A stretch of 64,000 nucleotides of DNA, taken from Candidatus Dojkabacteria bacterium (GTDB lineage: Bacteria; Patescibacteriota; Dojkabacteria; SC72). Numbering within the stretch: position 1 is the stretch's first letter; each line of letters begins with the position of its first letter. The notes beneath the pieces were generated by a model, which saw only the letters and a list, made by a program, of their open reading frames with translations, made no database searches and was not told where the DNA came from. Position numbers and translations under genes: made by a program. The stretch covers positions 4,317 through 68,316 of the forward strand of contig JBMNPD010000001.1 in assembly GCA_050943415.1 (NCBI GenBank), read 5' to 3'. Below, piece after piece: positions 3,001 to 48,421 of the stretch.

Positions 3001-6000
3001 AATGATGACATTGCTCCTACCCTTAAATTAGTTAAATCAGTAACTAATGACAACGGAGGTACATTAGGACCTAAAGATTGGACATTATCAGCTACAGGTC
3101 CTACCCCAATTTCAGGAGATGGAGGTGCTACAAGTGGTAGTAACTTCAAGGCAGGTACATACACATTAGGTGAGGTAGGAAAAACAGGAGTAGATGTATC
3201 AGGGTACGAGGCAGGTAAATGGAGTTGTACAAACAATGTTACAGTTGATGAAAACAATCAAATAACATTAGGATTAAATCAATCTACCGTATGTACAATT
3301 GTAAATAATGATATTGCTCCTAAACTAACAATAGTAAAGCATGTAGATAATGAAGGAAATGATGGTACAAAGAAAGCAGAAGATTTTAAGATAATGGTAG
3401 ATGGAGAAAAAGTATCAGAACCTAGTTTCCAAGGCTCAGAAGAAGGTGTAATAGTAACTTTGAATGCAGGTGAATATAAAGTAACTGAGGAAGAAGATAC
3501 AGAAAACTACACAGCTTCATATAGTAAAGATTGCTCTGGAACAATAAATGTTGGTGAAGAGAAAACATGTACAATTACCAATACAGGTATAGATCATGAA
3601 CCAACAATTGAAGTAACTAAGAATGCTGATAAGACATCAGTAAAAGAAACAGGAGAAGATGTAATCTTTACATTTACAGTAAAGAATACAAGTAAAGTAG
3701 ATACTGTAACAATTCTCTCTTTAGTTGATACAGTTTTTGGCACATTATCAGGTAATGATAATTGTAAAGTTGGAACAGAATTAGCACCTAATGCAACCTG
3801 TTCATTTACATTAACCAAGAAGATTAGTGGAGATTACTCTGGTCCAGACCACTACAACAAATTTACAGTTGAGGCAAAAGATGAGGAAGGAAATAAAACT
3901 GATGATAGTGATGACCAAACAATTACATTTACAGATGAAAAACCATCAGTTGAAGTACTAAAGACAGCAGGTGTTACTGAAATTCCAGAAACAGGTGGAG
4001 AAGTGGAATTCACATACAAAGTTACAAATACAGGATTAGAGAAAGTAACAATAACATCATTGGAAGATGACGTATTTGGAACCTTAACAGGAGATGATGA
4101 TTGTAAAGTTGGAATAGAGTTAGAAGCAGGAAAGAGTTGTGAATTCAAACAAACATTTACAATTGACCCTACTACACCAGGAGATCCAAATGCAGCAACA
4201 TCTCACAAGAATATCTTTACAGCAACTGTAGAAGATAATGAAGAGAATGAAGCAGAAGATAGTGATGAAGAAGAGATTAAACTAACACCAGTACCATCAT
4301 TGAAATTAGTAAAGAAAGTTGTACATAAATACAATTCAGACGAGACAATCACTGCAGCAGATTGGACACTATCAGCAAAAACAGAAGATGACGAAGGTAT
4401 CAGCTATGCAGGTGATACAGATAAGTTTGAATTTGTAAAAGCAGGAGAAGAATATTCACTCTCTGAAACAGGTGAATACATGAGTCAATTTGAACCAAGC
4501 GCTTGGAGTTGTACAGGAGGTGAATTAGTAGGTTCTACACTTAAACTTGCAGCGACAGATGATGTTGTATGTACTATAACAAATACAGCATTACCTGGAA
4601 CAATTAAGATATACAAAGATGTAGTATATGGTGATACAGACATATACTCATCAGACGAATTCGAAGTTAAGGTAGACAGTGATACTGAATCACAGAAGAT
4701 TACTGATACTGAGGAAGATCCTAAAGTAGCTGAATTCACAAATCTTGATGCAGGTGAATACAATCCTGAAGAAATCAATGTACCAAATGGATACAGAGCA
4801 TTGGGTTGTTATCCAAGAGAAGAAGATCAAGATTATACTGTAGGAAATGGAGAAACATTAGAATTTGTATGTCTAAATGAAGTAATTGAACCACTCCTAG
4901 AGATTGAAAAAGAGAATGATGCAGCAACAGCTAAGTACGCAGGTGACCAGGTTACATACACAATAACAGTAACAGCACCAGAAGATGAAGATAATGAGAG
5001 TAAATATCTTCTAAACAATGTTGAAGTATTTGATCTCGCACCAGCAGGATTTGACTACAACAGTGGTACATGGAGTGCAATTTCTTCAGTAAGAGGAGAT
5101 ATTACTGGAATTACGACAGTAGAACCTACATACAATGGTACAGATTATGCAAAATGGACACTAGGTAATATGGAAGAAGGAGAAATAGTAATCTTGAAAT
5201 ACACAACAACTATCTCCTTAACCCAAGATCCAGGTACATATCCAGATATTGCATGGGTAAAAGGAGTATCATTAGCAAACAGCAATGTCCTTGGAAATGT
5301 AAGTACAGGTGCAGATACACCATTCGTAGGAACTAAAGTACAAGTAATTGCTCCTGATGAAATCGAAGAAGGAGAAGTATTAGGTGCATCTACAATAGTT
5401 AGACTACCTAGCACTGGAGCAAGTACATATCTAACATTAGGAGGATTAATAACTATGCTCGTAGGTTTACTAATAGCTATGTTTGGTAGCAAAAAACAAA
5501 GAAAGAGTTCATTAAAACTTAGCTTACTAACAGCAGTTGCATCCCTACTCTTCCTACCATTCTATGTACATGCAGCAGAATATTTAGATGTAAAGATAGA
5601 ACAACCAAAAACACCTACTAACATCTCTAAATTTGAGATAGGCTTTGTAGCTATGTCTACAAGTCCTGAAGCTGTTAAAGTAGAATGTTTTGAGGAAGGT
5701 AAACCTACTCCATTCCAAACAGTAAATGCTTCAACAGGAAATTGCTTAGTAGATGTAAAAGCAAGTGGTACCTACAAATATTATGTTAAAGCTACAGTAG
5801 GTGGAGAAGAAAAAGATTCTGATACTGTGGAAGTAACTGTAAATCTTGAGAAGCCACAAGCTGTCCTAGATTACTCAAAAACAGGAAATACTCTTTCTTT
5901 CAAAACTGCAAATGATGGTATTACAAAACATGTCCAGATATTTAGATCAGAAAAAGTATCATTTACTGCAAACGCTTCAACATTAGTACATAGTATGACT

Positions 6001-6450
6001 GTTCTTCCAAATACCACATATACTTGGACAGATGGCTCAGCAGAATCAGGAAAAACATATTACTACGCTTTAAGAGCAGTAGATGCTTACGGTAATCTCT
6101 CCCCTATCATTTCAGATAACGAAGTTATTACTGTAGTAGAAAAAGCAGGAACAACAACTACTCAAACAGGACAGGTGGCAGGTGCTATCTCTATGACAAC
6201 ATCAGGAACAACGGCAAAGGATACAACAGGATTAGAAGATGCAGAGGTTAAGGGAGATACAGATACTACTGGCGAAGAGACAGAAAATACAGATGTTGAA
6301 AAGAGTGATGCAGAAACACAAGAATCAGAAGATACTGCAGAAGAAGAATCAAAGAAAGTATCAATATTCAAGAAATACTGGTACCTCTGGATAGCTGGAC
6401 TTCTTGTCCTAGTTGGTGGTATATATAAATATGTCAAAAGAGAAAGGTAA
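1..6450 (+). CDS. Giant repetitive cell-wall-anchored surface protein (adhesin-like). It is 5'-truncated by the window edge: the frame is open from nt 1. It carries about 11 Cna-B/SpaA-like ~95-aa Ig-fold repeats and DUF11-like repeats, an LPSTG sorting signal at nt 5404-5418, then a further ~320-aa module.
   Basis: Frame 1 has no stop from nt 1 to 6450. The translated repeat '..APTLKLVK.VNNDNGG..DWTL.A.G...C.ITN.D' recurs about 11 times. DUF11-like 'TKNADKTSV..GEDV.FTFTV.NT' repeats are present. LPSTG is followed by a hydrophobic stretch and a KKQRK tail. Confidence 0.85.
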   Translation, partial: VAKGENKECTITNTKYGSLTIVKDATPSSNQEFTFTTTGDGLSGFTLIDNSDTSNPSKEFKNLKAGTYSVAETVPSDWKLTSATCSDGSPVSAINLSVGENITCTFNNVQYGSIFGHKWVDADGLADTTNDRTPVSGWTIFIDANGNGVWDEGEEKTTTGTDGKYSFINLLPGTYKVVEQMETGWIVLVGDSKVVELSAGENEEVNFVNVKLGSITVKKNVDSNGDGDLDDDVDVIGSDQWNWTLNNVTVGKTGTTKNKLEPGTYTINETDGPAHYHFVSLTCTGAADNRITITGDTAKINLESGEDVVCTYRNARNLGKLIIEKEVINDNGGSKKATDFSFKIGSENPIQFTQNGDDVLKGRNEYTRYAGLSYTVTEPEADSDGYTTTYNNCTNIVVPHGGQAVCKITNNDNKPSLTLVKEVNNDNGGTLSKTDWTLTATGPTTISGDGGATSGDNFKAGTYTLSEIGKTGVDVSGYEAGKWSCTNNIVVNENNQITLGLNQSTVCKIVNDDKAPSLELIKEVNNKFGGNAKATDWTLTATGPTTISGDGGVTSGNDFKVGTYTLSESGNVTGYSASDWSCTNNIAVNENNQITLGLGQSTKCTITNSDIQPTLKLVKTVANNHGGDKKVADFNLYIGNTKVDSGVATGVNANTEYTVSEDQLPGYSASVWGGDCSAEGKITLLPGDNKTCTITNSDIAPTLKLVKSVTNDNGGKLEAKDWTLTAKAGTEEFSNLGDAGTVHTVKAGVGYVLSESTVAGYASEGWKCDKGTLDGNTITLGLAENATCTITNNDIAPKLTLNKIVLNKYGGNKVESDWTLYAKQGEVVALSGKGAEGDNDVVSGETFQAGSYTLSEKGVLGYDASDWSCTGTGSLKGNVITLGIGQEAICSITNTDRPAGLTVIKEVINDNGGKATADDFDIRLNKEKLEFKPWTGGVGQYTFTYASTPKVQSNTKYTLTEIDHPDYKEGEWSCKDNKTGNEITHPFTLVEGQSVTCTITNDDIAPTLKLVKSVTNDNGGTLGPKDWTLSATGPTPISGDGGATSGSNFKAGTYTLGEVGKTGVDVSGYEAGKWSCTNNVTVDENNQITLGLNQSTVCTIVNNDIAPKLTIVKHVDNEGNDGTKKAEDFKIMVDGEKVSEPSFQGSEEGVIVTLNAGEYKVTEEEDTENYTASYSKDCSGTINVGEEKTCTITNTGIDHEPTIEVTKNADKTSVKETGEDVIFTFTVKNTSKVDTVTILSLVDTVFGTLSGNDNCKVGTELAPNATCSFTLTKKISGDYSGPDHYNKFTVEAKDEEGNKTDDSDDQTITFTDEKPSVEVLKTAGVTEIPETGGEVEFTYKVTNTGLEKVTITSLEDDVFGTLTGDDDCKVGIELEAGKSCEFKQTFTIDPTTPGDPNAATSHKNIFTATVEDNEENEAEDSDEEEIKLTPVPSLKLVKKVVHKYNSDETITAADWTLSAKTEDDEGISYAGDTDKFEFVKAGEEYSLSETGEYMSQFEPSAWSCTGGELVGSTLKLAATDDVVCTITNTALPGTIKIYKDVVYGDTDIYSSDEFEVKVDSDTESQKITDTEEDPKVAEFTNLDAGEYNPEEINVPNGYRALGCYPREEDQDYTVGNGETLEFVCLNEVIEPLLEIEKENDAATAKYAGDQVTYTITVTAPEDEDNESKYLLNNVEVFDLAPAGFDYNSGTWSAISSVRGDITGITTVEPTYNGTDYAKWTLGNMEEGEIVILKYTTTISLTQDPGTYPDIAWVKGVSLANSNVLGNVSTGADTPFVGTKVQVIAPDEIEEGEVLGASTIVRLPSTGASTYLTLGGLITMLVGLLIAMFGSKKQRKSSLKLSLLTAVASLLFLPFYVHAAEYLDVKIEQPKTPTNISKFEIGFVAMSTSPEAVKVECFEEGKPTPFQTVNASTGNCLVDVKASGTYKYYVKATVGGEEKDSDTVEVTVNLEKPQAVLDYSKTGNTLSFKTANDGITKHVQIFRSEKVSFTANASTLVHSMTVLPNTTYTWTDGSAESGKTYYYALRAVDAYGNLSPIISDNEVITVVEKAGTTTTQTGQVAGAISMTTSGTTAKDTTGLEDAEVKGDTDTTGEETENTDVEKSDAETQESEDTAEEESKKVSIFKKYWYLWIAGLLVLVGGIYKYVKRER
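1206..1800. repeat. Two tandem ~290-bp intragenic repeats encoding near-identical Ig-like domains. A third copy lies at 2976-3290.
   Basis: Near-identical nucleotide strings (e.g. 'ggtaaatggagttgtacaaacaat' at ~1443 and ~3211). The spurious antisense ORFs 1206-1463, 1506-1775 and 2976-3257 translate to near-identical peptides. Confidence 0.8.
5479..6450 (+). other. In-frame distal module of the giant ORF. It has a cryptic signal-peptide-like segment (MFGSKKQRKSSLKLSLLTAVASLLFLPFYVHA|AE), Fn3-like domains, an acidic T/E/D-rich linker and a C-terminal TM anchor (YWYLWIAGLLVLVGGIYKYVKRER).
   Basis: The internal ATG at 5479 is in frame. A positively charged n-region is followed by an h-region and a VHA-A cleavage-like site. 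A 'GKTYYYALRAVDAYGNLS' Fn3-like signature is present. The ORF ends with a hydrophobic helix and a basic tail. Confidence 0.5.
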
Positions 6451-19571: not shown

Positions 19572-20702
19572 TCAATATTTATCATCTAACCATTTCCTTA
19601 CTGCTCTTCTTAGATCTTCTTCACAAGTCCTTTGTATCTGCGCAAATGTTTGTGTAGGAGAAGCTACTTCATATATGCCCTCTATTAAATATTTTTTCTT
19701 TAAGTTTTCATCATTAATTTCATTTCTTCCTGCAAATATAACTAGAGGAATCTTCTTTTTTGTAGTAAATTTAGCAATACCACTGATGGTTTTACCCATC
19801 ATTGATTGTTTGTCGAATTTACCTTCTCCTGTTACAACTACATCGGTATTATGTAGTATTTTGTCGAAATTACACATATCTAGTACTAAATCTATTCCAT
19901 TGACAATGTCTGCATTAAGAAAGAATGTACATGATGCTGCTATTCCACCTGCTGCACCTCCACCTACTATTTTTGAGATATCAACATTGAATTGTTTCTT
20001 TAGAATATTTGAGTAGTGTCTCAATCCCTTGTCTAGTAGAATAATTTCTTTTTCACTTGCTCCTTTCTGTTTGGCATATACATATGCTGCTCCATTTTTA
20101 CCGTACAAGGGATTCAGTACATCTCTCATTATTGTAAATTTTAGACCTTTAATATTCTTTTTCAATGCACTGTCATCTATGGTAGTAATATCTTTTAGTG
20201 TAGAACCTGTTGGAACAAAAGTCTTTTTATTTTTGTCTAGAAACTTGACTCCTAATGCTGATAGGAGACCTGTACCTGCATCGTTTGTAGCACTACCTCC
20301 TAGTGCAATTATTATGTTTTCTGCTCCTTTAGATTTTGCATGTAGAATTTGTTCTCCCATTCCTAAGCTAGTTGTTATCATTGGATTTTTGGGATTAGCA
20401 AAAGTGAGTCCTGCACATTGTGCTGCCTCTATAACCACACTTTTGTCATATCTAACATACTTAAATTCTTGTTTGATAAAGTTAGGAGAGGTAAAGAGTC
20501 CTGTTACATACTCTCCTGCGAAATTTTCAAAGAATACATCTATGGTATTTTCTCCTCCATCAGCTACTGAGAGTCTAATTACTTCAGTGTTGGGCATCTT
20601 CTTTTTGATTTCTTCTTGAATAATGGTGCCTGCTTTAAAGGAAGCTATTGTTCCTTTAAAGGAATCTGGTGCTACCACTATTTTCATTTTTTTCTTTTGC
20701 AT
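19572..20702 (-). CDS. glxK: Glycerate kinase.
   Basis: 'KIVVAPDSFKGT' N-terminus and 'GEGKFDKQS' region typical of the GlxK/GckA family. Confidence 0.85.
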   Translation of the reverse strand: MQKKKMKIVVAPDSFKGTIASFKAGTIIQEEIKKKMPNTEVIRLSVADGGENTIDVFFENFAGEYVTGLFTSPNFIKQEFKYVRYDKSVVIEAAQCAGLTFANPKNPMITTSLGMGEQILHAKSKGAENIIIALGGSATNDAGTGLLSALGVKFLDKNKKTFVPTGSTLKDITTIDDSALKKNIKGLKFTIMRDVLNPLYGKNGAAYVYAKQKGASEKEIILLDKGLRHYSNILKKQFNVDISKIVGGGAAGGIAASCTFFLNADIVNGIDLVLDMCNFDKILHNTDVVVTGEGKFDKQSMMGKTISGIAKFTTKKKIPLVIFAGRNEINDENLKKKYLIEGIYEVASPTQTFAQIQRTCEEDLRRAVRKWLDDKY

Positions 20703-21919
20703 AGTTCTCTTTCAAATACATTTTTACCTAATTGTTTGGATTTGTTAGACCAATATCTAGTAAGTTTACAGTTATCAAAGTTGTTAATTAGTTCAGCATA
20801 TTGGCTTACGAGGTTTTCTTCTTTTTTGCTGCATTCTAGGGAGAATTGTACTAGTTTGGAGTGACTGGTATTTTCTTGTTTTAGTTGTTTGTCTCCTTTT
20901 ATGAATTCTTGTTCTAATTTTCTTGCTTTCTGTGTCAATTCATCTAAGTTTATGATGTTGGAGTATATTAATCTGTTAAGCTTTTCTCTTTTTAGCCAGT
21001 ATTGAAAACTATCTTGTTCATTTTTAAAACATGGTGGTACTACAAAATTTCCTGATGGGTGGAAGTAAAGAGGTTTGAAGATGGATATACATGGTGTAGA
21101 GGATCCTGTTGTCCATATGGTGATGTCTTTGTCATTGACGATTGATATCATGCTACCAGTTGTATGGTCTCCTAGTAGTCCTGCGTGCATGCATACACTT
21201 TTTACAGATCCTTTTCTAATTGCTTTCTCTTGTGTTGTTGTATGTAGTCTTAGGGTGTTGAAATATTGTTCTAGGTCGTACTGTTGAATGTTTTTGAGGT
21301 GTTGGCTACCTAGTTTCATTCTACTTTTTGATCCAGAGAAGTATGTGAATATTGGTTCTGTGTGTTTTTTAGCAAATTCATCGAGTGAGAGTCTGTTAGA
21401 TATGTTGGCACAATCTTTTACTTGTTTAAGGGCGTATTCTTTTCCTGCTGTTTCTAGTATGTATGCTTCGTTAGTGTCTGTTATGAGGTATGAGTTGTCG
21501 TAGTAGAATTCATTGTCAAAGCCACAGTTTCCTCCTTGTCCATATTGTTGTAGTAGTTGTATTATTTCTTCAGTTGCTTGTTTGGCTGTTTGTGATCTTT
21601 CTAATGCGAGTCTAAGGAAGTCCATACCTATGAGGGTTGGTGTTTTCTTTGTTTTTGATTTTGTAAATACTGCTTCATTTCCAATACTTACTCCGTATTG
21701 GTTTGTACCCATTTCTGCTCCCCATATCCATGATGGTTTGACTAGAAGTACTGCGTAGTGTTCTTTTGGATCTGGTATAGATATGTATGTGCATTGTACT
21801 TGTCCTCTTGAAGTTCCTGCTGGGTAGAAGATGGTTAGGTTTGGTTCGTTTACTGCTCGGTCACTATTTTTAAGAAAAATGGAGTATTGGTTTTGTTTTT
21901 TCCATAATGTATCACACAT
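20684..21919 (-). CDS. Ntn-hydrolase peptidase, C69 dipeptidase-like.
   Basis: The N-terminal 'MCDTL' (Cys2 nucleophile) and 'KNSDR' resemble the C69/secernin family. This is an inference. Confidence 0.55.
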   Translation of the reverse strand: MCDTLWKKQNQYSIFLKNSDRAVNEPNLTIFYPAGTSRGQVQCTYISIPDPKEHYAVLLVKPSWIWGAEMGTNQYGVSIGNEAVFTKSKTKKTPTLIGMDFLRLALERSQTAKQATEEIIQLLQQYGQGGNCGFDNEFYYDNSYLITDTNEAYILETAGKEYALKQVKDCANISNRLSLDEFAKKHTEPIFTYFSGSKSRMKLGSQHLKNIQQYDLEQYFNTLRLHTTTQEKAIRKGSVKSVCMHAGLLGDHTTGSMISIVNDKDITIWTTGSSTPCISIFKPLYFHPSGNFVVPPCFKNEQDSFQYWLKREKLNRLIYSNIINLDELTQKARKLEQEFIKGDKQLKQENTSHSKLVQFSLECSKKEENLVSQYAELINNFDNCKLTRYWSNKSKQLGKNVFERELCKRKK

Positions 21920-22000
21920 ATGTTATTTAAAGATATCACAAGGGGTAAGAGGTGTAAATGGAGTAAACTGTATGTTAAATCGTAGACGGTATGATATTTG

Positions 22001-22027
22001 TTGAAAAAGCTTTTATGATGGTATAAT
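22001..22027 (+). promoter_or_regulatory. Promoter for small-protein cassette 1: -35 ttgaaa, extended -10 tggtataat.
   Basis: TGnTATAAT at 22019-22027. The same 'atggtataat(c/t)aagagta(c/t)ttt' string recurs at 23079-23100. Confidence 0.6.
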
Positions 22028-22115
22028 CAAGAGTACTTTACAATCTGATAGATTCTAGATTACTAGATCATATATCAGAAAAATATATAGCACATGGCAA
22101 AAAAGGGAGGAAACA

Positions 22116-22385
22116 ATGTCTGACGCATATACAGATGCAAAACAAAAAAACACTAAATGGGACAATATTGAAGAAGATCTCGAGAAATGTCAGGAATCAA
22201 TAGAGTCTGCCATTGATTCATTGCAGTGGTTGCTTGATGAGATTAAAGAAACCAAAGATTCTCCAACTAATCGGCAAGTTGAGATATTGAAGAATTTTTA
22301 TTCAGGCTCGATGAAGCAAGTTGAGAGGATTGTTGAGATTCTAATTCGGATAAAAATGGAGATTGCGGCTAGGAAAAACAACTAG
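22116..22385 (+). CDS. Small helical protein, paralog family member 1 (89 aa).
   Basis: RBS aaaagggagg. Shares 'W..E.DL' and 'L.NFY.G....ER...I.I..EI' motifs with the 23161-23427 product. Confidence 0.6.
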   Translation: MSDAYTDAKQKNTKWDNIEEDLEKCQESIESAIDSLQWLLDEIKETKDSPTNRQVEILKNFYSGSMKQVERIVEILIRIKMEIAARKNN

Positions 22386-22459
22386 TCTAAATTCGAACCG
22401 TGTTTTTGATAAGATTTTAATCTAATCAGAAAATATATAGTGGTAAAAGGAGGTCTGAA

Positions 22460-22933
22460 ATGTTCTCTAAAAAAGAAAAAATAAGAAGTGGGAAGGAATT
22501 GTTTTTAACTCTTCAAAATATTGTAAATGGTGTTAAAGGACTCGAAAAAGAATGTATCGAAATGTTTAACGGTGTATCGAATACGATGCTGCCTGTTACT
22601 CAGGAAGATGAAGCAGAAATAAAGATACTGATTGAAAAGTTAGAAAAGATGGTTAGGAACATCTTAACTACTTGCCAAACCCTAGCTGTATGTAACTCAG
22701 GAGGAGAAAACAATGAGGAAGCCAATATTGAAAGACTGAATAAAATTCTTGAGCATCTCAAGAGTTCAGAAAAATTGCTTGAGGAAATTCGTTTAGGAAG
22801 ACCTCTTAAGCAGAAGCAAGAAGTCAGTGAAAAGTTTTATGAGGCATATAAAATCATTAATAAGGTTACACTTATGCTTATAGAACTGTTTTCTCGATTC
22901 TACGGAATCGAAAGATCTTCAGATGAAGATTAG
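22460..22933 (+). CDS. Helical protein, paralog family member 2 (157 aa, possibly a duplicated fold).
   Basis: RBS aaaaggagg. Its 5'UTR is a partial copy of the cassette UTR (tcagaaaatatatag). 'ERLNKILEHL' resembles 'ERLNAICIQL' in member 3. Confidence 0.6.
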   Translation: MFSKKEKIRSGKELFLTLQNIVNGVKGLEKECIEMFNGVSNTMLPVTQEDEAEIKILIEKLEKMVRNILTTCQTLAVCNSGGENNEEANIERLNKILEHLKSSEKLLEEIRLGRPLKQKQEVSEKFYEAYKIINKVTLMLIELFSRFYGIERSSDED

Positions 22934-23059
22934 AGAAAGAAATATCTAAATTATAACCCTAACCGTGGTATACAACTTGGTATCTCCAATTTTTACAATT
23001 ATGCCATGTGCTAGAGTTCTTTTATTTTTATCTTTTATAGTGTAATTAGTTATGTCGAA

Positions 23060-23088
23060 TTTGTATAAAAGACCTATAAATGGTATAA
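23060..23088 (+). promoter_or_regulatory. Promoter for cassette 3: -35 ttgtat, 17-nt spacer, extended -10 tggtataat.
   Basis: Near-identical to the cassette-1 promoter and followed by the same UTR elements. Confidence 0.6.
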
Positions 23089-23130
23089 TTAAGAGTATTT
23101 TAACAATCTGATGTTTGTATATCAGAAAAA

Positions 23131-23499
23131 TAGCACATGGCACAGCCTAGGAGGTGAATTATGTCGAACTATGTTCCGAAAGGATCTATCTGGGAAAAGA
23201 AACTTGAGACAGATTTACAGGAACTGCAAAAACAACTTGTTGATGCTGAGAAGAAAGCCTCTACTGTATATATAGACGCTAGTCTTACAGTTGCCGACAA
23301 GGACACTTTAAATTTTTATGCTGGTGGAAGAGACGAATTAGAAAGGCTGAATGCTATATGTATTCAACTTACTAAAGAAATCGGTTCGTTCTTATCCAGA
23401 ACGGATGATTTGATTAAAGAAGAATAATTTTACTTAGAACTCTAGGTGTGGTGTGGTATAGTTACCATCTCCAAATTTTTACAATCATGCCATGTGCTA
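23131..23499. repeat. Second inverted-repeat pair (tagcacatggca at 23131-23142; tgccatgtgcta at 23488-23499) bracketing gene 3. The downstream arm overlaps the Nudix gene stop codon.
   Basis: Exact 12-mers. The flanking 'ccatctccaaatttttacaat' is shared with the 22981-23000 copy. Confidence 0.8.
23161..23427 (+). CDS. Small helical protein, paralog family member 3 (88 aa).
   Basis: RBS 'ctaggaggtg'. Homologous to member 1. Confidence 0.6.
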   Translation: MSNYVPKGSIWEKKLETDLQELQKQLVDAEKKASTVYIDASLTVADKDTLNFYAGGRDELERLNAICIQLTKEIGSFLSRTDDLIKEE

Positions 23500-24051
23500 G
23501 AGTTCGTTCTTGTAAAGTTTATTATTTTCTAAAATTCTTGTTAAGAATCCCCAAGAACTAGTTTTTCTTGTTAAATCTTTATAATCATTCTTAATCATAC
23601 TTAGTAATTTGTTAGGTGGAAAAAATCTTACTTCTTCAACTTCTTCTTTTTGTAGCTTTAATTGTGAAATATCAACATCTTTTTTAATAAGGTAGCATTC
23701 ATCATAATGCTTGTTAATATAACCAGGTAGATTAGTAACAGAGGTTGAGGAAATCAAAAATTTTATATCATCATCAGATACATCTATACCTAGTTCTTCC
23801 TTACATTCTCTAATTAATGCTTCTCTACCAAACTCACCAGCATTTACATGTCCCCCTACTGTTACATCCCATTTCATAGGCCAAAGCTTTTTATTTTTAC
23901 TTCTGAGTTGTAATAGAATTTCGCCTTTGTTGTTTACAATAAAGCCGTATACTGCTCTATGCCAATATCCTTTCTCATGACATTCATCTTTAGTAGCCAG
24001 TTTCCCTGTAAATTCTCCAAATTCATTTAGTACATCTACTTTTTCTTCCAT
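23497..24051 (-). CDS. Nudix hydrolase.
   Basis: Nudix box 'GGHVNAGEFGREALIRECKEELGI'. Confidence 0.8.
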   Translation of the reverse strand: MEEKVDVLNEFGEFTGKLATKDECHEKGYWHRAVYGFIVNNKGEILLQLRSKNKKLWPMKWDVTVGGHVNAGEFGREALIRECKEELGIDVSDDDIKFLISSTSVTNLPGYINKHYDECYLIKKDVDISQLKLQKEEVEEVRFFPPNKLLSMIKNDYKDLTRKTSSWGFLTRILENNKLYKNEL

Positions 24052-24096
24052 TTGGTATCTTAAAAAATATTTATTAGTTTTATATCTAATACTGCT

Positions 24097-24444
24097 TTAC
24101 ATTCCTCCTCTGTATTTATTTTTGTATGCAATAGTTAAGTATGTAAAATATTTGTTAAAGAATTCATCATCTGAGTTATACACATTATCATACATGAAAT
24201 AATCTACCCACAACTCTCTCATTCTACATAATTCTTTAGATTGGCCGTATGTTAGTTTAGATTCTTTAGTTAGATCAAATAGTTCTAGAGATCTAACAAA
24301 AGCATCATACGCATACTTTTCGTCACCTTTTTTTCTCCAATTTAATGCTCTGTATACCTCACTACCAATATTAGCCATTTGTTCAAGAAATGGTTTCTTC
24401 TGCCATACTCCATTAGCTAAATTTTTATGTTGAAACTTTCTCAT
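24097..24444 (-). CDS. Hypothetical protein (115 aa).
   Basis: ORF between two Nudix genes. No recognisable motif. Confidence 0.45.
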   Translation of the reverse strand: MRKFQHKNLANGVWQKKPFLEQMANIGSEVYRALNWRKKGDEKYAYDAFVRSLELFDLTKESKLTYGQSKELCRMRELWVDYFMYDNVYNSDDEFFNKYFTYLTIAYKNKYRGGM

Positions 24445-24462
24445 TACTCTTCTATCTTGGAT

Positions 24463-24987
24463 TTAACAATTTGTAGAATCTTTTTTTCTTAAATATTCTT
24501 TAAATAATAACAATGCAGCTAAATTAACAGTATCTTCTGGTTTAAGATTCTCTAAATATTCCTCGTATGGTTTAAGTACAACCTCTATATCTTCAGTTTG
24601 AGATCCTTCTTTAAATGTACACCCTTCTATCAATACAGCATATTTTGGATTTGATATATAAGCACCATCAAAAATTTTACCAAGCAATGTAGCTTTTGTT
24701 CCTACATAACCTGTCTCTTCTGTTAATTCCCTTATAGCACAATCTACAGGGTTTTCTCCATCATCTAAACATCCACCAGGAATATCTAAAAATTCTTTCA
24801 TAGGACCAGGTCTAAATTCTCTTACTAGAATAATATTGTTGTCTTCTGTTAGAGCAATTATTGAGGCTGAACCGTATATACTTCCACTAACTTCAAATTC
24901 AGATGTTTTACCTTGTTCATCTACAAAGGTTCTTAAAAGTAATCTTCTGTAGTTTTGGTATATAGTTTTTTCTTTAACTAGTTTCAT
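24463..24987 (-). CDS. Nudix hydrolase (ADP-ribose pyrophosphatase-like).
   Basis: Nudix box 'PGGCLDDGENPVDCAIRELTEETG'. Confidence 0.8.
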   Translation of the reverse strand: MKLVKEKTIYQNYRRLLLRTFVDEQGKTSEFEVSGSIYGSASIIALTEDNNIILVREFRPGPMKEFLDIPGGCLDDGENPVDCAIRELTEETGYVGTKATLLGKIFDGAYISNPKYAVLIEGCTFKEGSQTEDIEVVLKPYEEYLENLKPEDTVNLAALLLFKEYLRKKDSTNC

Positions 24988-25056
24988 TCCTATTCAAATA
25001 TATCCTATCAATTTCTCTTTGTTAGGTAAACTATGTTTGAATGATATAATTAAGGT

Positions 25057-25530
25057 ATGAAAATATATATTACAGGAAGTGCTGGAAGTGGTAAGAGTAC
25101 ATATGCTAAAAAACTTTCCGAAAAATTAAAGATACCTGTATATAGGACAGATGATTTCTACGAAGAGAAAGAAAAAAGGATGTTTACAGGCAAAGAGATT
25201 AGTGAGGTTGTAGATATAGATTCTGATTGGATAATAGAAGGAGCTTACTATATTCCTAAATATGTAAGAGCTGCAGACAAGGTTATATATATTCGAATAG
25301 ATATATTAAAAACAGTATTTAGAATATTTAAAAGGTGGTTTAGTGATGTAGAAATTAGAAGAAAATTTTCTCTATTAGATACAATTAAATTGTGTTTTAC
25401 TACAGTAAGAGATAGATATACTTCTGAAGGAATAGATGTAAAGACAAATATACCAAGGCATTACAAAGAAAAAGATAGGTATAATCTTTGTAAAAAGAAT
25501 GCTAAGGAATTTGTAGAACTATATTTTTAG
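25057..25530 (+). CDS. P-loop NTPase / nucleoside(tide) kinase-like protein (adenylate kinase or topology-modulation TopoMod-like).
   Basis: Walker A 'ITGSAGSGKST' at the N-terminus. About 157 aa. Confidence 0.6.
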   Translation: MKIYITGSAGSGKSTYAKKLSEKLKIPVYRTDDFYEEKEKRMFTGKEISEVVDIDSDWIIEGAYYIPKYVRAADKVIYIRIDILKTVFRIFKRWFSDVEIRRKFSLLDTIKLCFTTVRDRYTSEGIDVKTNIPRHYKEKDRYNLCKKNAKEFVELYF

Positions 25531-25748
25531 GTGTTTTAGGTTGGTTAATAATCTGTATCCCAATTAGATAATATCTTATCTGCAAGTACAATTAGAAAAT
25601 CTTTGTCAACAAATTTCTCTTTTGTTCGATCATAATGATGTGCGAATACCTCATCTTTGAAAGTTAGTATTATATCAAAAAAACTCTGAATTACACACTG
25701 TAGAAATAAGTGTATAATGAAACAGTATAAAATATTCAAAGTAAAAAG

Positions 25749-26567
25749 ATGAAGTATGATACAACTGCTTTAGAAGGAATAAATACAGTTCTAGTTACAG
25801 GAGCAGGAAGTGGTATAGGTAAGGCTTTTGCTGTAGAGTTTGCTAAGTTAGGTTTAAATTGCGTATTAGTTGGTAGGGATAAAAAAAGGTTGGCAAGAGT
25901 TGCAAGTATTCTAGAGAAAAGATACAAAGTAAAAACTTGGATAGTACAACAAGATTTAAGTGTATATAATGGAGCACAAAAACTTTTTAGTTATTGTCAA
26001 AAACGAAATATACAGGTAGATATTGTTGTAAATAATGCTGGAAGATTGATTAATCAAGAACTCTTAACCTTAAGTAAAAAAGAAATAACTAGGTATTTGT
26101 ATTTACATGTTCATTGTACAACTTTTCTGACATATCTTTTTGGTAGAGAGATGGTAAAGAGAAGGAAAGGTTTTATCATTAATATCTCATCTATATCTGC
26201 TTGGATGACATTACCAGGTATTCAATTATATGGTGCTACAAAAAGGTATATTCGTGATTTTTCTCGTTCAATGTATTATGAATTTGCAAGAAGTAATGTA
26301 GGAGTAACAGTTATTTGTCCTAGTGGAGTAAATACAGGTTGTTTCAAATTACCTAAAAGGTTAAGGAAGGGAGCTTTAAGATTTGGTTTAATTATTAAAC
26401 CTGAACAGGTAGCAAAAGTTGGTATTGAAAAAACACTTAAATTTAAGAAACAGGTGTTTCCTAATCGCTTTGATAGACTATTTATATTCATGACTGCCAA
26501 TTTAATAGATCCTGTTGTATTCTGGCTTATGAAAAAGGATTCACTATTTAAGGGTAAAAAGAAGTAA
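25749..26567 (+). CDS. Short-chain dehydrogenase/reductase (SDR).
   Basis: 'VLVTGAGSGIGKA' Rossmann motif, 'NNAG' and catalytic 'Y...K' (YGATKRY). Confidence 0.8.
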   Translation: MKYDTTALEGINTVLVTGAGSGIGKAFAVEFAKLGLNCVLVGRDKKRLARVASILEKRYKVKTWIVQQDLSVYNGAQKLFSYCQKRNIQVDIVVNNAGRLINQELLTLSKKEITRYLYLHVHCTTFLTYLFGREMVKRRKGFIINISSISAWMTLPGIQLYGATKRYIRDFSRSMYYEFARSNVGVTVICPSGVNTGCFKLPKRLRKGALRFGLIIKPEQVAKVGIEKTLKFKKQVFPNRFDRLFIFMTANLIDPVVFWLMKKDSLFKGKKK

Positions 26568-26569
26568 GT

Positions 26570-26700
26570 TAACAATATGTAAGGCACAGAGAGAATAGGA
26601 CTCTCCATAGATAGGATGCAAGCCCCTTGCCTTGAGCTATAGCTTGCCTCTCTCACTCGGACAAACACGAGGGGAGAGGTGCACATTTATCAATACTTAA
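26570..26700. ncRNA. GC-rich structured element between convergent genes. It may be a small ncRNA or a bidirectional terminator.
   Basis: Local GC is much higher than the surroundings. It contains nested inverted repeats (gcaag..cttgc; cctctc..gagagg). The overlapping antisense ORF 26276-26686 has no supporting signals. Confidence 0.25.
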
Positions 26701-26799
26701 CCCAAATAGATTTAAAAGACTTAAAGTAGGAAATTTATATTATAGAGTACAAGAGAGAGAATAAGTGTTTATTAATCTCTCTCTTGTGTCTTTGTCTAA

Positions 26800-28293
26800 C
26801 TACTGCAACTTCTCGAATTTGTTATCTGGTAACTGTCTGTAATATCCTTGTCCTTCTGGTCCATATGAACTCCAAGAGTTAACAGGAGTACTGTATATTT
26901 GACCTGTACTTGGTGAAGTTACAGTCTCGTACCCGTTCATTCCTTCTATCCATTTTTCACCAGTTTCTTGAGCTATAGATCTACCATAGGTTCTACTTTT
27001 AGAAGTCATTGAAGATTCTAAGCTCTCTATTGGTCCTTTAAATGGTAGTAATGTGTTCATCTTTGGAGTTTTACTGTCAATAAAGGCAAGACTGTCTCGC
27101 ATAGTGCGGAAAGAATCTACAGTACTTTCCCAATTCTCTGATGTTGTTATATATCCAACCAAGAAAGCAGATGCGTATTTAGTACCAACATCAAAATATG
27201 GGGGCTGATATACTCCTACAGTTGCTTCTCCTTGAATAGGTATGCCTTCCATACTGGCAGTAAAAGTAAACTCCTGCATACTATTTCCTAATATATCAGA
27301 AGGCAATACTGCTCCATCTGTTATTATTAGATTTTTTAATCCTTTCATTTCTGAAAGCATATTCTCTAACCAAGATTTAGGTGTATATTCTGTTTTCAAT
27401 TCAGTAGTGTATGCATAAGTAAACATTCCTCTGTTATCAGTCTTGACTAAATCAATACCATTTTCTTTCTCTTTATCAACTTTAAAATCAGATGATTTAT
27501 CTAACTTAAAGTACTTTCCTTCATATGTCTTAAAACCTTCAGGAAGTTGTTCTTTTTTTGGTTCTTGCTCTTTGCTTTCTACTTTATTTAGTTCATCTAC
27601 TATTTCTTTCTGTTTTGCTAACAAAATATCATCTGTAAGTACTTTTGTTCTTGCGAAACATCCACATATATCCTTTAAGATAGTTTCTCTCTCTTCAAAG
27701 ATCTCAGTTGGAGCCCAATATGCTTTGAATGTAACAAAATCTCCTGATTTAGAAGCAATCATTTTTCCCTTTATATTGTATTCACCAATCTTAGCGACTA
27801 TATCAGCATTAGTTTGATTCTCTAGCAGTTGAATATTCTGCATTTCAAACGTGCTATTTTCTTCTTCTTCAATTGTTTGTGTAAAGATTCTAGAAAATGC
27901 ATTTAAGAAATCTTCTTCTGTTAATTCTTGCTTTAGTTTTGCTGTGTACAAGAATACTGCTGTAGTATTTGTCTCATCTTCCATTATGGATACAGCTCCA
28001 TTATTAACTTCGTACAACCAACCATTTGGAACTCCAATACTAAAGGCATTCTCAGGATACTCTATTTTTGTTAAAGAACAGGTAGGATCATCATTTTCTA
28101 CAGTAGCAGCGTAGTATTCATCTCTTTTTAAATTTATTTCCTCTAGTTTACTACTAATGTTTTCAACAATATTTTTAAAAGAATCGGTTGGAATGAAAAC
28201 AAGTAAAAGTGCAATAGTGAGGATTAATATGGTTGAAATAATTAAAGATTTCTTGTGTTGTTCAAAGAAATCTTTGAGGGCAATTTTTTCCAT
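26800..28293 (-). CDS. Membrane-anchored extracytoplasmic hypothetical protein (497 aa).
   Basis: N-terminal TM helix 'LIISTILILTIALLLVFIP'. Long ORF with no known motifs. Confidence 0.55.
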   Translation of the reverse strand: MEKIALKDFFEQHKKSLIISTILILTIALLLVFIPTDSFKNIVENISSKLEEINLKRDEYYAATVENDDPTCSLTKIEYPENAFSIGVPNGWLYEVNNGAVSIMEDETNTTAVFLYTAKLKQELTEEDFLNAFSRIFTQTIEEEENSTFEMQNIQLLENQTNADIVAKIGEYNIKGKMIASKSGDFVTFKAYWAPTEIFEERETILKDICGCFARTKVLTDDILLAKQKEIVDELNKVESKEQEPKKEQLPEGFKTYEGKYFKLDKSSDFKVDKEKENGIDLVKTDNRGMFTYAYTTELKTEYTPKSWLENMLSEMKGLKNLIITDGAVLPSDILGNSMQEFTFTASMEGIPIQGEATVGVYQPPYFDVGTKYASAFLVGYITTSENWESTVDSFRTMRDSLAFIDSKTPKMNTLLPFKGPIESLESSMTSKSRTYGRSIAQETGEKWIEGMNGYETVTSPSTGQIYSTPVNSWSSYGPEGQGYYRQLPDNKFEKLQ

Positions 28294-31277: not shown

Positions 31278-32483
31278 TTAATATCTTTTATTGATAGGTA
31301 AAACTTTATTAGTGTTTGCCGACCGAGCAAATCCCTCTATTGTTTCTTTAGTCATATTTAATAAGTTTGGAAGTTGCTCTCCTATTCTATCGACCCACCT
31401 ACCTTCTAAAAGATGTATATTTTTAACCTCACCTTCACTCTCTCCAATACTTATATACATGTTGTCTAAAATATCTCGGCCTTTCTTGGCTGAATTTATA
31501 ATGGTGTCCTGCATAGATTTACTAATCGAATATTTGCCAAAATCACCAATAAATATATTCGAGAAGTATTCTTTTAGATATGATGTTGTAATAGAGGTAG
31601 TAGGTAATAATGTATCATTTTGGGCTGTTTTACTTTTTAATACGACTTTAGGTTTAACTATTCTATCAAACCCTCCAGACAACTTAAGATAGTCTAGAGT
31701 ATTGTTATCAATATTTTTTGTTTCTAAATATTCTAAAACCTCATCTACTTTACTCTCGAATGAGAGTAGCTCTTCTAGATGATTATTACTTGTTCTTACT
31801 TCTGGATATTTAAAAATATTATTAATGTTTTGAAGAATATCACTAGGGATATAATTTTCTCCTACAATATCCTTTATTTCATCTTCTGGTAAAATTCTAT
31901 CTATATCTTTAGTTGTATACTCCTTCATAATCTCATAATCTAGATTGTAATCATATTTAAGAAGATACTTTATTTCATTGTACAAAACTATTCCTAACAT
32001 TGGTTCATCCTTAGAAAACTCTCTAAGCCATGTTCTAAGATTCCTTCCTATTCTATTCTGTTCTTTTGTGTTTTGTGTTCTCATTCTCTCCTTAATGGCA
32101 TTTGCCATTTCTCTAGCTATCTCTGTATGTATTAATTTTTCAGGTTCATACTGACCAGGAAGAGTGATGAATTCGTTAGTAGATAGAATAAAATCATATC
32201 TTAGTGATCTTATATCCTCTTCATGAATTCTCTCTTGTTTTTCTATTTTGTAGAATGAGGAGATAGGAAATTTCTCTTTAACAAGAAGTTGTAAAGCTAA
32301 AATACTGTCAAAAGAGTGTTTTTGGATTGAATGTCCATCATATGATATTCTCTCTGGGTTCTCTAAATATATCTGAAAATAATCTTGCATTTTTGATATT
32401 TCTCCTTTATTTTCAGATAGTCTAAAAGCGTATTCTAATTTGTTGGAACGATATATTGGTATTTCTAGTCCATTTTGTTGCAA
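31278..32483 (-). CDS. Hypothetical protein (401 aa), unknown function.
   Basis: Long ORF overlapping the upstream gene by 19 nt (translationally coupled). No assignable catalytic motif. Confidence 0.5.
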   Translation of the reverse strand: MQQNGLEIPIYRSNKLEYAFRLSENKGEISKMQDYFQIYLENPERISYDGHSIQKHSFDSILALQLLVKEKFPISSFYKIEKQERIHEEDIRSLRYDFILSTNEFITLPGQYEPEKLIHTEIAREMANAIKERMRTQNTKEQNRIGRNLRTWLREFSKDEPMLGIVLYNEIKYLLKYDYNLDYEIMKEYTTKDIDRILPEDEIKDIVGENYIPSDILQNINNIFKYPEVRTSNNHLEELLSFESKVDEVLEYLETKNIDNNTLDYLKLSGGFDRIVKPKVVLKSKTAQNDTLLPTTSITTSYLKEYFSNIFIGDFGKYSISKSMQDTIINSAKKGRDILDNMYISIGESEGEVKNIHLLEGRWVDRIGEQLPNLLNMTKETIEGFARSANTNKVLPINKRY

Positions 32484-32944
32484 GATAGGGGTACCATCTT
32501 CATATTGATATATTTTTTTCTTCCTTCTTTATACTGTAGATATTTGGCTTCCTCTTCAGTACTATTTATATGTGAGAGTTCTGGCTTAAGTATTCCATAT
32601 GACAAATCGCCTCTCCTTACAAATATCATTTTTCCACTAAATTTTATTCCTTTTGTATATCTGAGATATTCTTCTGTTACTACAATAGCATCATCAGTCT
32701 CATATATATGTGAATTTGTAAAAGCATTGCCAACTTCATCACTACTTATACCCTTAATTCTGTTAATATCTATATCCTCAGTTTGGTATGTTTGGGCTCC
32801 TATTACTAAGGGTAAAGGTAAATTATCAGTTATAGTTTTATTGTATGGATCTAATTCAGGAGAATTAGAATCAGGTGTTACTACCAATATGGGAGTAGTG
32901 TCAAGTTGTTCTGTTTTTACTGGTGAATCAAATTGGGTACCCAT
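32465..32944 (-). CDS. Hypothetical protein (159 aa), first gene of the operon.
   Basis: ORF overlapping the downstream gene. Confidence 0.45.
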   Translation of the reverse strand: MGTQFDSPVKTEQLDTTPILVVTPDSNSPELDPYNKTITDNLPLPLVIGAQTYQTEDIDINRIKGISSDEVGNAFTNSHIYETDDAIVVTEEYLRYTKGIKFSGKMIFVRRGDLSYGILKPELSHINSTEEEAKYLQYKEGRKKYINMKMVPLSCNKMD

Positions 32945-33003
32945 AACTTATATTAACAGAATTAAGTGGATAATTGTAGTAGGAAGATGTATAATACTAT
33001 GGG

Positions 33004-47342: not shown

Positions 47343-47518
47343 ATATAATAGATGATACAGTAATTAGATGGTATGTACAATAACAAATACGATGTGTTTT
47401 AAATGTTGATGATTTTGAGAAGAGTCTAGGTAAGTATATGTTGGAAACATATTATTTAGGATATGTATTATACATATCACTAATCTTACCTAGACTTTCT
47501 CTATCTGTTAGTTATATT

Positions 47519-48213
47519 TTACTCGACAAGCTTGAAATCAAGCTTATCGGTACCTTTGAACATCCAGGGGTCTCCCTGCCCGCTGCTGCGGTATTCTACG
47601 GATTTCGGTGAAATCCGAATGTCCAGCAATTCCTGTGGAGTAATCGTTCCCGATTTCTCACAAGATGTGAGAATGGCCTGTTCATTACTGAGTTTCAACC
47701 AGAATTGGTTGTCCTCTTGTAATTTGGCCTGATGTACATTGTACATCATCGGTTTCTCGGCAAGAGCCTCTCCGAAACATTGTTTCGAAACTCCATAGAT
47801 GACTCTGCTGTTTTGGAGATCTGCAGACCATCCACGGATTTTTTGTGAGAAGTATAACGGTACTCGATTACTGTAAGTCGTAAAAATACGATACTTACCT
47901 TCCGGTACATCGATCACTTCTCTATATGGAGGCCCTGAAAAAGGCCCACTCACAATTGTGAGTAAGTCTTCAGGCACTCGAGGCAATTCATATGGCTTCA
48001 CTTCTCCTGTAGGATATATACATTCTATCCTAGGATAAGCGCCATGCATATGACATGATAAATTACCTCCATTTAGAACACATTGGTTTGCCCACTCAGC
48101 AAACTCAGGAATCTTCCATGGCCATGTGGCTGGATCACATGTCTGGTTACCTGCCATAACGGCAGATACTGATGTTAACAACATCAGTACAACAACAATA
48201 AACAACAATTTTC
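47519..48213 (-). CDS. Secreted hypothetical protein with an atypically GC-rich coding sequence. The start is revised to MKNRK.
   Basis: Signal peptide 'LLFIVVVLMLLTSVSAVMA'. Strong SD 'aaagaggagg' sits upstream of the ATG at 48213. GC is clearly higher than in flanking genes. Confidence 0.6.
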
Positions 48214-48421
48214 GGTTTTTCATTATTCCCCTCCTCTTTAGAGAATGATGATTTTGAATGAACAAAAATGCGTCATAGACGCTTATAACTAACAGCACAT
48301 GTATTTTATCAAATTTCTTTTTTTCATGCAACTCTATAGGTTCTTATTACCATATTTTTATATAACCGCTAATTCTAAATATATGATATATTTAAACATT
48401 AATAATTTAAAACAAAACAGT

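Follow-up and report, generated by a model that had tools for sequence, protein, structure and literature searches.

Tandem small-gene cassettes in a Candidatus Dojkabacteria genome with predicted pairing between the 5' leader and the 3' end of each mRNA

We analyzed a 64,000-nucleotide (nt) stretch of contig JBMNPD010000001.1, hereafter the window (32.5% G+C), from a Candidatus Dojkabacteria metagenome-assembled genome (MAG) of the Candidate Phyla Radiation (CPR), and focus on three consecutive small open reading frames (ORFs) that are identical to the hypothetical proteins ACOX6Q_00100, ACOX6Q_00105, and ACOX6Q_00110, which are encoded on a contig of 102,918 bp. The ORFs are arranged in two tandem transcription units, here called cassettes, of which the first carries genes 1 and 2 and the second gene 3, and which have in common an extended -10 promoter and a hairpin at each end (5' and 3'). 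Each cassette contains a 12-nt box A in its leader and the exact reverse complement, box B, in its 3' hairpin, with each box at the equivalent place in both. In folding models, pairing of box A with box B (A:B), i.e., of the 5' leader with the 3' end, is the thermodynamically dominant predicted state of each messenger RNA (mRNA). The features are as follows; lengths of proteins are given in amino acids (aa) together with the isoelectric point (pI), and SD denotes the Shine-Dalgarno sequence.

22019..22027, + strand: extended -10 promoter of cassette 1, TGGTATAAT, a sequence match with an identical block at 23081
22044..22079, + strand: 5' leader hairpin of cassette 1, outer stem UCUGAUA/UAUCAGA with an inner UCUAG/CUAGA within the loop; -11.8 kcal/mol, z -2.75
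22088..22099, + strand: box A1, TAGCACATGGCA, 5 nt upstream of the SD GGGAGG (22105-22110)
22116..22385, + strand: gene 1, 89 aa, acidic, pI 4.9, predicted two-helix hairpin, family-less
22386..22459, + strand: internal spacer between gene 1 and gene 2, apparently a degenerate cassette junction
22460..22933, + strand: gene 2, 157 aa, pI 5.5, predicted up-down four-helix bundle, family-less
22955..23018, + strand: 3' hairpin of cassette 1, left arm AAC(C)CUA.CCGUGGUAUA, right arm holding box B1
23002..23013, + strand: box B1, TGCCATGTGCTA, exact reverse complement of box A
23081..23089, + strand: extended -10 promoter of cassette 2, TGGTATAAT, with a -35-like TTGTAT 17 nt upstream
23107..23126, + strand: 5' leader hairpin of cassette 2, UCUGAUGU/AUAUCAGA; -8.1 kcal/mol, z -2.9
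23131..23142, + strand: box A2, TAGCACATGGCA, 6 nt upstream of the SD AGGAGG (23149-23154)
23161..23427, + strand: gene 3, 88 aa, acidic, pI 4.7, weak paralog of gene 1, family-less
23437..23505, + strand: 3' hairpin of cassette 2, outer stem of 9 perfect base pairs (bp), GAACUCUAG/CUAGAGUUC, and 11 more pairs, including 5 G-U; -23.2 kcal/mol, z -3.8
23488..23499, + strand: box B2, TGCCATGTGCTA, exact reverse complement of box A

An earlier note on this DNA, made from its sequence, had described near-identical extended -10 promoters, a leader hairpin with a conserved stem and a variable loop, and perfect 12-bp inverted repeats at the cassette ends, and all three descriptions hold. The promoter block TGGTATAAT.AAGAGTA occurs in the window only at 22019 and 23081, with zero to two mismatches allowed. 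The predicted promoters lie 60-70 nt upstream of box A; that of cassette 1 has a -35-like TTGTTG approximately 18 nt upstream of its -10 element and a predicted start near 22033-22035, and no convincing minus-strand promoter was found at the locus. The leader hairpins have a stem common to both cassettes and different loops, and their pattern, ATCTGAT...ATCAGAAAA, is confined to 22043-22082 and 23106-23129 within the window; none of 100 shuffles gave two matches. Box A begins at 22088 and 23131 on the plus strand and its reverse complement at 23002 and 23488, giving four exact matches where 0.20 are expected, a number reached by none of 100 shuffles.

Four identical 12-bp sites in alternating orientation could also be read as DNA elements, either as inverted repeats of a recombinase, which would flip A1..B1, A2..B2, or the promoter junction B1..A2 as a phase switch, or shuffle cassettes, or as operators of a regulator. 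Boxes B1 and A2 do bracket the second promoter within 141 bp, as in an invertible promoter, and the slot is variable and occupied by defence genes in relatives (see below). We nevertheless consider this explanation improbable. In the ~8-15 kb to each side, no recombinase or transcription-factor gene was seen; contigs from four other samples carry a single orientation (at the contig level), there are no further sites in the 64 kb, and any such inversion would leave no promoter facing a gene. Furthermore, box A comes exactly after the leader hairpin and before the SD, and box B is part of an RNA hairpin arm, as a role at the RNA level would predict. The suggestion of recombination or cassette shuffling in the earlier note is not supported; no further copies were detected in the window, in the Genome Taxonomy Database (GTDB) species representatives, in JGI metagenomes, or in IMG/VR. 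Two known classes of mobile or invertible elements were also considered. Integron gene cassettes are not supported, as every unit carries a promoter-like block of its own, an integrase is missing from the neighbourhood, and there are no further cassettes; an inverton would account for the inverted repeats, but no recombinase was found in the ~8-15 kb around the locus and the contigs of every sample examined have one orientation.

The 3' block comprises a 35-nt core that is 94% identical between the cassettes. The earlier note was right that the cassette ends are conserved but not that they agree letter for letter, since cassette 1 reads GGTATCTCCAATTTTTACAATT... and differs from cassette 2 by one indel and two substitutions. 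In cassette 1, a 16-bp interrupted stem is followed by UUUUAUUUUUAUCUUUU; the hairpin has a T-rich run at 23020-23036 and the sequence TTTTATTTTTATCTTTT behind it, which gives the structure the look of a terminator. In cassette 2 the stem measures 20 bp, the tail is only moderately U-rich, and the ascending arm reads GAACUCUAG.UGUGGUGUGGU. Both loops carry the motif AUCUCC, at 22982-22987 in cassette 1 and at 23467-23472 within the 26-nt loop of cassette 2. The descending arm of the hairpin consists of box B and GAGTTC, and the ascending arm contains A', a wobble-rich look-alike of box A. When the two cassettes and a strain variant are considered together, 88% of the cells in the stem pair, compared with 24-52% when the partners are slid; one change is compensatory (A-U in cassette 1, G-C in cassette 2) and two one-sided changes are wobble-compatible. 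The variant, 22958 C>T (position 400 of contig L003, from another sample), is the sole base difference in 1,142 nt and converts a C.A mismatch in the left arm of the cassette 1 hairpin into a U-A pair, rendering that arm identical to the one in cassette 2. A consensus scan for terminators did not call these hairpins because their loops (26-28 nt) far exceed the canonical size, and an Rfam scan returned only tRNAs at gathering thresholds and only noise at E<=5. The 3' hairpin probably terminates and/or stabilizes the transcript. The last two codons and the TAG stop of a convergent NUDIX gene (23497-24051, - strand) lie within the outer stem of the cassette 2 hairpin, which may be a shared, two-way terminator.

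A different role for the 3' block would be that of a separate small RNA gene with its own -10-like box, TGGTATA(GT/CA), whose RNA, carrying CUCC and box B, represses box A and the SD of both cassettes in trans, like the antitoxin RNA of a type I system. The cassette 2 sequence TGGTATAGT is a good extended -10 element inside the left arm, the RNA downstream of it would hold AUCUCC and box B, complementary to the leader in the correct antiparallel order, and the identical boxes would permit cross-regulation between cassettes. However, the final T, which is invariant, is missing from the cassette 1 sequence (TGGTATACA), no promoter consensus match was obtained at that box, and an RNA starting there would lose the left arm and with it the terminator hairpin, retaining little structure. 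The encoded proteins, hydrophilic, acidic, and 88-157 aa long, are also unlike type I toxins. We regard such a small RNA as very improbable.

The 12 Watson-Crick pairs of the A:B helix (12/12) yield -20.1 kcal/mol in both units. As RNAduplex applied to whole flanks was uninformative because long interrupted duplexes dominate its output, it was replaced by the energy of the contiguous helix, which was calculated over 2,868 mismatched pairs of 5' and 3' flanks from the window as a control. A:B is stronger than all 2,868, the best of which reaches -16.1 kcal/mol. By length, the match is less exceptional: the longest perfect complement between the 120-nt upstream and downstream flanks of 60 window genes is usually 6-9 nt, and a 12-nt flank complement is not rare, with 0.27 genes per 60 predicted from mismatched pairs. 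A second perfect 12-nt flank complement, CTGTTAGTTATA (47505-47516 / 48284-48295), surrounds the gene at 47519-48223 (- strand); it is AT-rich, has an energy of -12.9 kcal/mol, and falls within chance expectation.

Both predicted full-length transcripts close via A:B in their minimum free energy and centroid structures, and the predicted equilibrium probability of the pairing is 0.94-0.98 whichever transcript end points are used. The proposal of the earlier note that each mRNA could pair its ends over 12 nt is therefore borne out at the level of prediction, and it has precedents in hbs, hok, and icaR. In a read-through transcript the boxes are predicted to nest, A2 with B1 and A1 with B2. Predicted pairing of the SD increases with the 3' element, from 0.46 to 0.75 in cassette 1 and from 0.71 to 0.87 in cassette 2.

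The ends of the cassettes are much more similar than the genes between them. The 5' flanks are 86% identical over 97 aligned columns and the 3' flanks 81% over 67 columns (including the core at 94%), whereas the codon-aligned coding sequences of the 88-89 aa genes are saturated at 45% nucleotide identity, and third codon positions are 33% identical vs. 28% expected from composition. Judged by this comparison, selection or gene conversion has kept the non-coding ends nearly unchanged even as synonymous sites became saturated, and because of this saturation the flanks appear to have been maintained for a long time.

Further information comes from the internal spacer. It contains, in order, the start of a left arm or post-stop remnant (TCTAAATTCGAACCGTG), a weak leader hairpin (22403-22432), AGAAAATATATAG, a decayed box, and an SD; the box remnant is TAGTGGTA at 22438-22445 (decayed: TAG----TGGTA) and the SD is a strong AGGAGG at 22448-22453. 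Neither a -10 box nor box B is present in 22386-22459. Cassette 1 is, as read from these remnants, a fusion of two cassettes. The fused unit can be viewed as a natural experiment in which the internal leader kept its hairpin and SD and lost box A, and the terminal boxes stayed perfect. Membership of gene 2 in the cassette family is supported by this degenerate leader and not by protein similarity.

These observations bear on whether the complementarity has any function. The 3' hairpin could be an ordinary terminator and box A a historical by-product, for instance a left-arm copy that a local duplication placed in the leader, with the flanks kept alike by gene conversion and the coding sequences drifting or diversifying under selection. 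Box A indeed resembles A' (UAGGUGUGGUG / UAACCGUGGUA), the left arm and local pairing partner of box B, and both TGGTATA and TTTACAAT are present in the 5' and 3' blocks alike. Moreover, this is a single independent event, a flank complement of 12 nt is not rare as far as length goes (0.27 expected per 60 genes), and there are no other copies or homologous loci to show selection. On the other hand, A' has decayed to wobble and mismatch pairs while box A remains perfect (12/12) in both cassettes, the helix energy lies beyond every control, the one box A to have decayed is the internal copy, which has lost its place at the 5' end of a transcript, and the saturated synonymous sites imply that the flanks were maintained over a long time. 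We find a functionless complementarity possible, if on the whole doubtful.

The explanation we prefer, albeit tentatively and with somewhat less than even confidence, is a tandem family of small genes organized as autonomous units of transcription, in whose mRNAs the 5' leader can base-pair with the 3' end. Several points weigh against it. The cassettes are duplicates, so the four boxes amount to one evolutionary event followed by duplication, and the retention of both boxes in both cassettes is about what an overall flank identity of ~90% predicts. The locus is known from one organism only; the other contigs are all 99.9-100% identical and the boxes are the same in both cassettes, which leaves no variation from which covariation of A:B could be read. 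Covariation counts for the 3' hairpin (n=3) are not significant, being equalled by 184 of 500 shuffles, and its strand preference by the G-U test is ambiguous. Promoters, start sites, and terminators are predictions, and cassette 2 has no clean U-tract. Pairing of the loop motif CUCC (AUCUCC) with the SD is predicted in cassette 1 (P 0.66) and hardly at all in cassette 2 (P 0.01). Finally, equilibrium folding of these 400-1000 nt RNAs takes no account of ribosomes or of co-transcriptional kinetics, and the latter would favour A':B, the local hairpin.

The products of the three genes are all acidic (pI 4.7-5.5), and their grand average of hydropathy (GRAVY) values of -0.41 to -0.82 mark them as hydrophilic; none has a signal peptide or transmembrane-like hydrophobicity. 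For gene 1 the AlphaFold2 model is a two-helix hairpin (predicted local distance difference test, pLDDT, 76), and for gene 2 it is an up-down four-helix bundle (pLDDT 82, predicted template modelling score 0.74); structure searches with these models retrieved generic hairpins, designed bundles, and four-helix bundles only. Three features argue that the three ORFs are real genes, namely strong and correctly spaced SDs, the length of the ORFs given the AT-rich genome, and folds predicted with confidence from single sequences. The earlier note had called genes 1 and 3 clear paralogs; the relationship is real (BLASTP E=1e-5 over 26 residues, with the shared motif NFY.G) but weak, at 29% identity overall. 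The similarity it had seen between gene 2 and the other two is not significant, either by BLASTP (E 4-5) or by hhalign (E 0.04 at a probability of 1%).

That note had assigned no family to the proteins, and remote-homology and structure searches gave no relative. In a word-index search of 5.8 billion proteins each of the three matched only itself. A HMMER profile of genes 1 and 3 run against 1.84 billion representatives yielded two non-self matches, both eukaryotic tandem-repeat proteins (one leucine-rich-repeat-like), which were rejected as repeat-inflated. Pfam, PADLOC, PHROGs, NCBIfam, and PDB sequences contained nothing at or near cut-off for the three proteins; matches to TscT, Ntox28, and JetA were rejected at 15-19 bits vs. 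cut-offs of 25-29. Protein-pattern scans of IMG/VR viral contigs likewise found no relatives.

Two familiar classes of small proteins were compared with the cassette products. WXG100/ESAT-6 proteins are alike in length (~90 aa), in a predicted helix-turn-helix hairpin that would pair into four-helix bundles, and in being encoded by tandem genes. The cassette proteins differ in having no W-x-G motif, no PF06013 match at E<=1, and no type VII secretion genes (FtsK/SpoIIIE-type ATPase) within ~8-15 kb, so that membership of this class is not supported; together with the missing signal peptides and hydrophobic segments, these findings speak against the WXG-like or secreted effectors that had been suggested earlier. 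Toxins of the type I (hok/sok) kind do not fit either, as the proteins are 88-157 aa long, hydrophilic, and predicted to form soluble helical bundles and are not small hydrophobic membrane peptides.

On one side, the neighbours of the cassettes encode a racemase, a GNAT acetyltransferase, a pyruvate phosphate dikinase, a GH3 glycosidase, a glycerate kinase, and a C69-like peptidase, and on the other two NUDIX hydrolases, a small kinase-like protein, a short-chain dehydrogenase, and family-less ORFs. Besides the genes for recombinases and type VII secretion, we looked for phage modules and saw none within ~8-15 kb on either side. The contigs from four other samples are 99.9-100% identical to the window and their cassette arrangement is unchanged. 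Anaerobic-digester data sets in which the organism is present include SRR31066179, SRR13001970, ERZ773285, and JGI 3300009680. Beyond this organism, no trace of the cassettes was found: a conserved 19-mer had no matches in the GTDB species representatives (one genome per species) and occurred in JGI metagenomes only in the same organism's own contig, a 16-mer had no matches in IMG/VR, nhmmer profiles of both flanks detected no further copy in the window or in the other loci compared, and blastn of phages and plasmids gave no match. A search of IMG/VR with the 5' pattern returned 17 single-box matches, which were dismissed as chance.

Two related Dojkabacteria (L022 and L023) keep the synteny of glycerate kinase and peptidase, with the peptidase 87% and 74% identical, and the cassettes are absent from the orthologous slot in both. 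In their place L022 (region 1-6000) carries a type I restriction-modification system (HsdM, HsdS) and L023 a single MrcB_N/NucS_C nuclease (4956-6000), followed by the ortholog of window gene 26800-28293. Because the two relatives examined have restriction genes there instead, the cassettes appear to be lineage-specific and to sit in a variable slot. Within the collections and the two relatives searched there are no extra copies and the orthologous loci are empty of cassettes, the outcome that the earlier note had set against its own proposal; a contingency gene family, another of its suggestions, is not supported by a single locus that is missing from the slot of both related species. The variable segment between the C69-like peptidase and a 497-aa ORF (window 21920-26799) is 4.9 kb long here and contains the three family-less genes, two NUDIX hydrolases, the kinase-like protein, and the dehydrogenase. 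Judging from these gene contents, it looks like a hotspot for defence or accessory genes among Dojkabacteria.

Some observations concern the wider window. Other Dojkabacteria aside, the C69-like peptidase (window 20684-21919) has its closest relatives, at 59-62% identity, in Christensenella, Kosmotogales, and Petrotogaceae MAGs (L024-L030), a distribution that may reflect gene exchange among anaerobic-digester bacteria. A single ORF of 1,969 aa occupies 541-6450 (+ strand). The longest inverted repeat in the window is 24 nt long and 92% complementary (32746-32769 / 32950-32973), with its arms 180 nt apart, one in the 5' part of ORF 32465-32944 (- strand) and the other in the upstream spacer of that ORF.

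Of the known systems, the hbs mRNA of B. subtilis provides the closest comparison in layout. Just after its leader hairpin 2, a 14-nt box pairs (-19 kcal/mol) with a terminator-adjacent sequence (Braun, Durand and Condon 2017, PMC5737220); the interaction was proven by compensatory mutants, restrains RNase Y cleavage, and is tied to RNase Y and RNase J1 (PMC5737220). The cassettes share with hbs a small gene (~90 aa), a strong SD, structured leader hairpins followed at once by a fully complementary box, and a partner of that box at the terminator end of the 3' untranslated region (UTR). The helices are similar in length and energy as well, with 14 nt at -19 kcal/mol in hbs and 12 nt at a predicted -20.1 kcal/mol in the cassettes. 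They differ in that the hbs partner lies just upstream of the terminator, whereas in the cassettes it is the descending arm of the hairpin itself, and the cassette proteins are unrelated to HBsu.

In hok mRNA, the 5' end pairs with the extreme 3' end (tac-fbi) in the closed full-length form (PMC9841398). The cassettes resemble it in their predicted end-to-end pairing and in that removal of the 3' partner would free an alternative local structure. Hok itself is a small hydrophobic membrane toxin, unlike the hydrophilic and acidic cassette proteins, and at the cassettes we identified neither a Sok-like antisense gene nor a mok-like overlapping frame nor ucb/dcb boxes. In S. aureus icaR, a C-rich 3'-UTR motif, UCCCCUG, pairs with the SD of its own message (Ruiz de los Mozos et al. 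2013, PMC3868564). The cassettes have a C-rich 3'-UTR motif as well (AUCUCC), oriented so that SD pairing is possible. However, their main helix adjoins the SD and does not cover it, CUCC:SD pairing is predicted in cassette 1 but not in cassette 2, 12 bp is a short target for RNase III, and the 3' UTR of ~70-90 nt is not long.

Combining the folding models with these analogies, we infer the transcript ends, the A:B pairing in vivo, and the effect of pairing as follows. The locus would be a lineage-specific tandem array that originally comprised three small-gene cassettes, the first two of which were presumably fused by a deletion. Each unit would consist of a strong extended -10 promoter, a 5' leader hairpin, box A, a strong SD, one or two genes, and a long 3' hairpin, and its products would be small acidic helical-bundle proteins. 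After synthesis, the mRNA may exchange the local, wobble-rich A':B hairpin for the long-range A:B helix of -20 kcal/mol, which would tie the 5' leader to the 3' end of the message. The local and long-range helices are mutually exclusive because box B forms an arm of the terminal hairpin. If the parallels with hbs, hok, and icaR hold, the closed form could modulate how readily nucleases reach the mRNA and/or how ribosomes load at the neighbouring ribosome-binding site.

A much more far-reaching interpretation, which we consider a long shot, takes the conserved ends as constant 'sockets' of a modular system in a CPR defence hotspot. Fast-evolving helical-bundle proteins (toxin/antitoxin-like, anti-phage, or anti-defence) would be kept silent as end-paired mRNAs and released by 3' processing, and the identical ends would allow module exchange or co-regulation. 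If true, this would constitute a previously undescribed cassette architecture, distinct from integrons and from type I toxin-antitoxin loci.

At present the value of the end-pairing model is that of a testable lead and not of a discovery, as it is based on one organism and on prediction. To our knowledge, validated 5'/3'-UTR pairing within a single bacterial mRNA comprises only a handful of cases (hbs, icaR, and hok). All of them come from well-studied model bacteria or plasmids (B. subtilis, S. aureus, and an E. coli plasmid). If true, the cassettes would add a clean, sequence-visible example of 5'/3' pairing in a bacterium of the Candidate Phyla Radiation, with a built-in competition between terminator hairpin and long-range helix and with a natural deletion variant in which the internal box has decayed. 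The three well-folded, family-less proteins, encoded in a slot that holds restriction systems in relatives, are candidates for factors related to defence or conflict.

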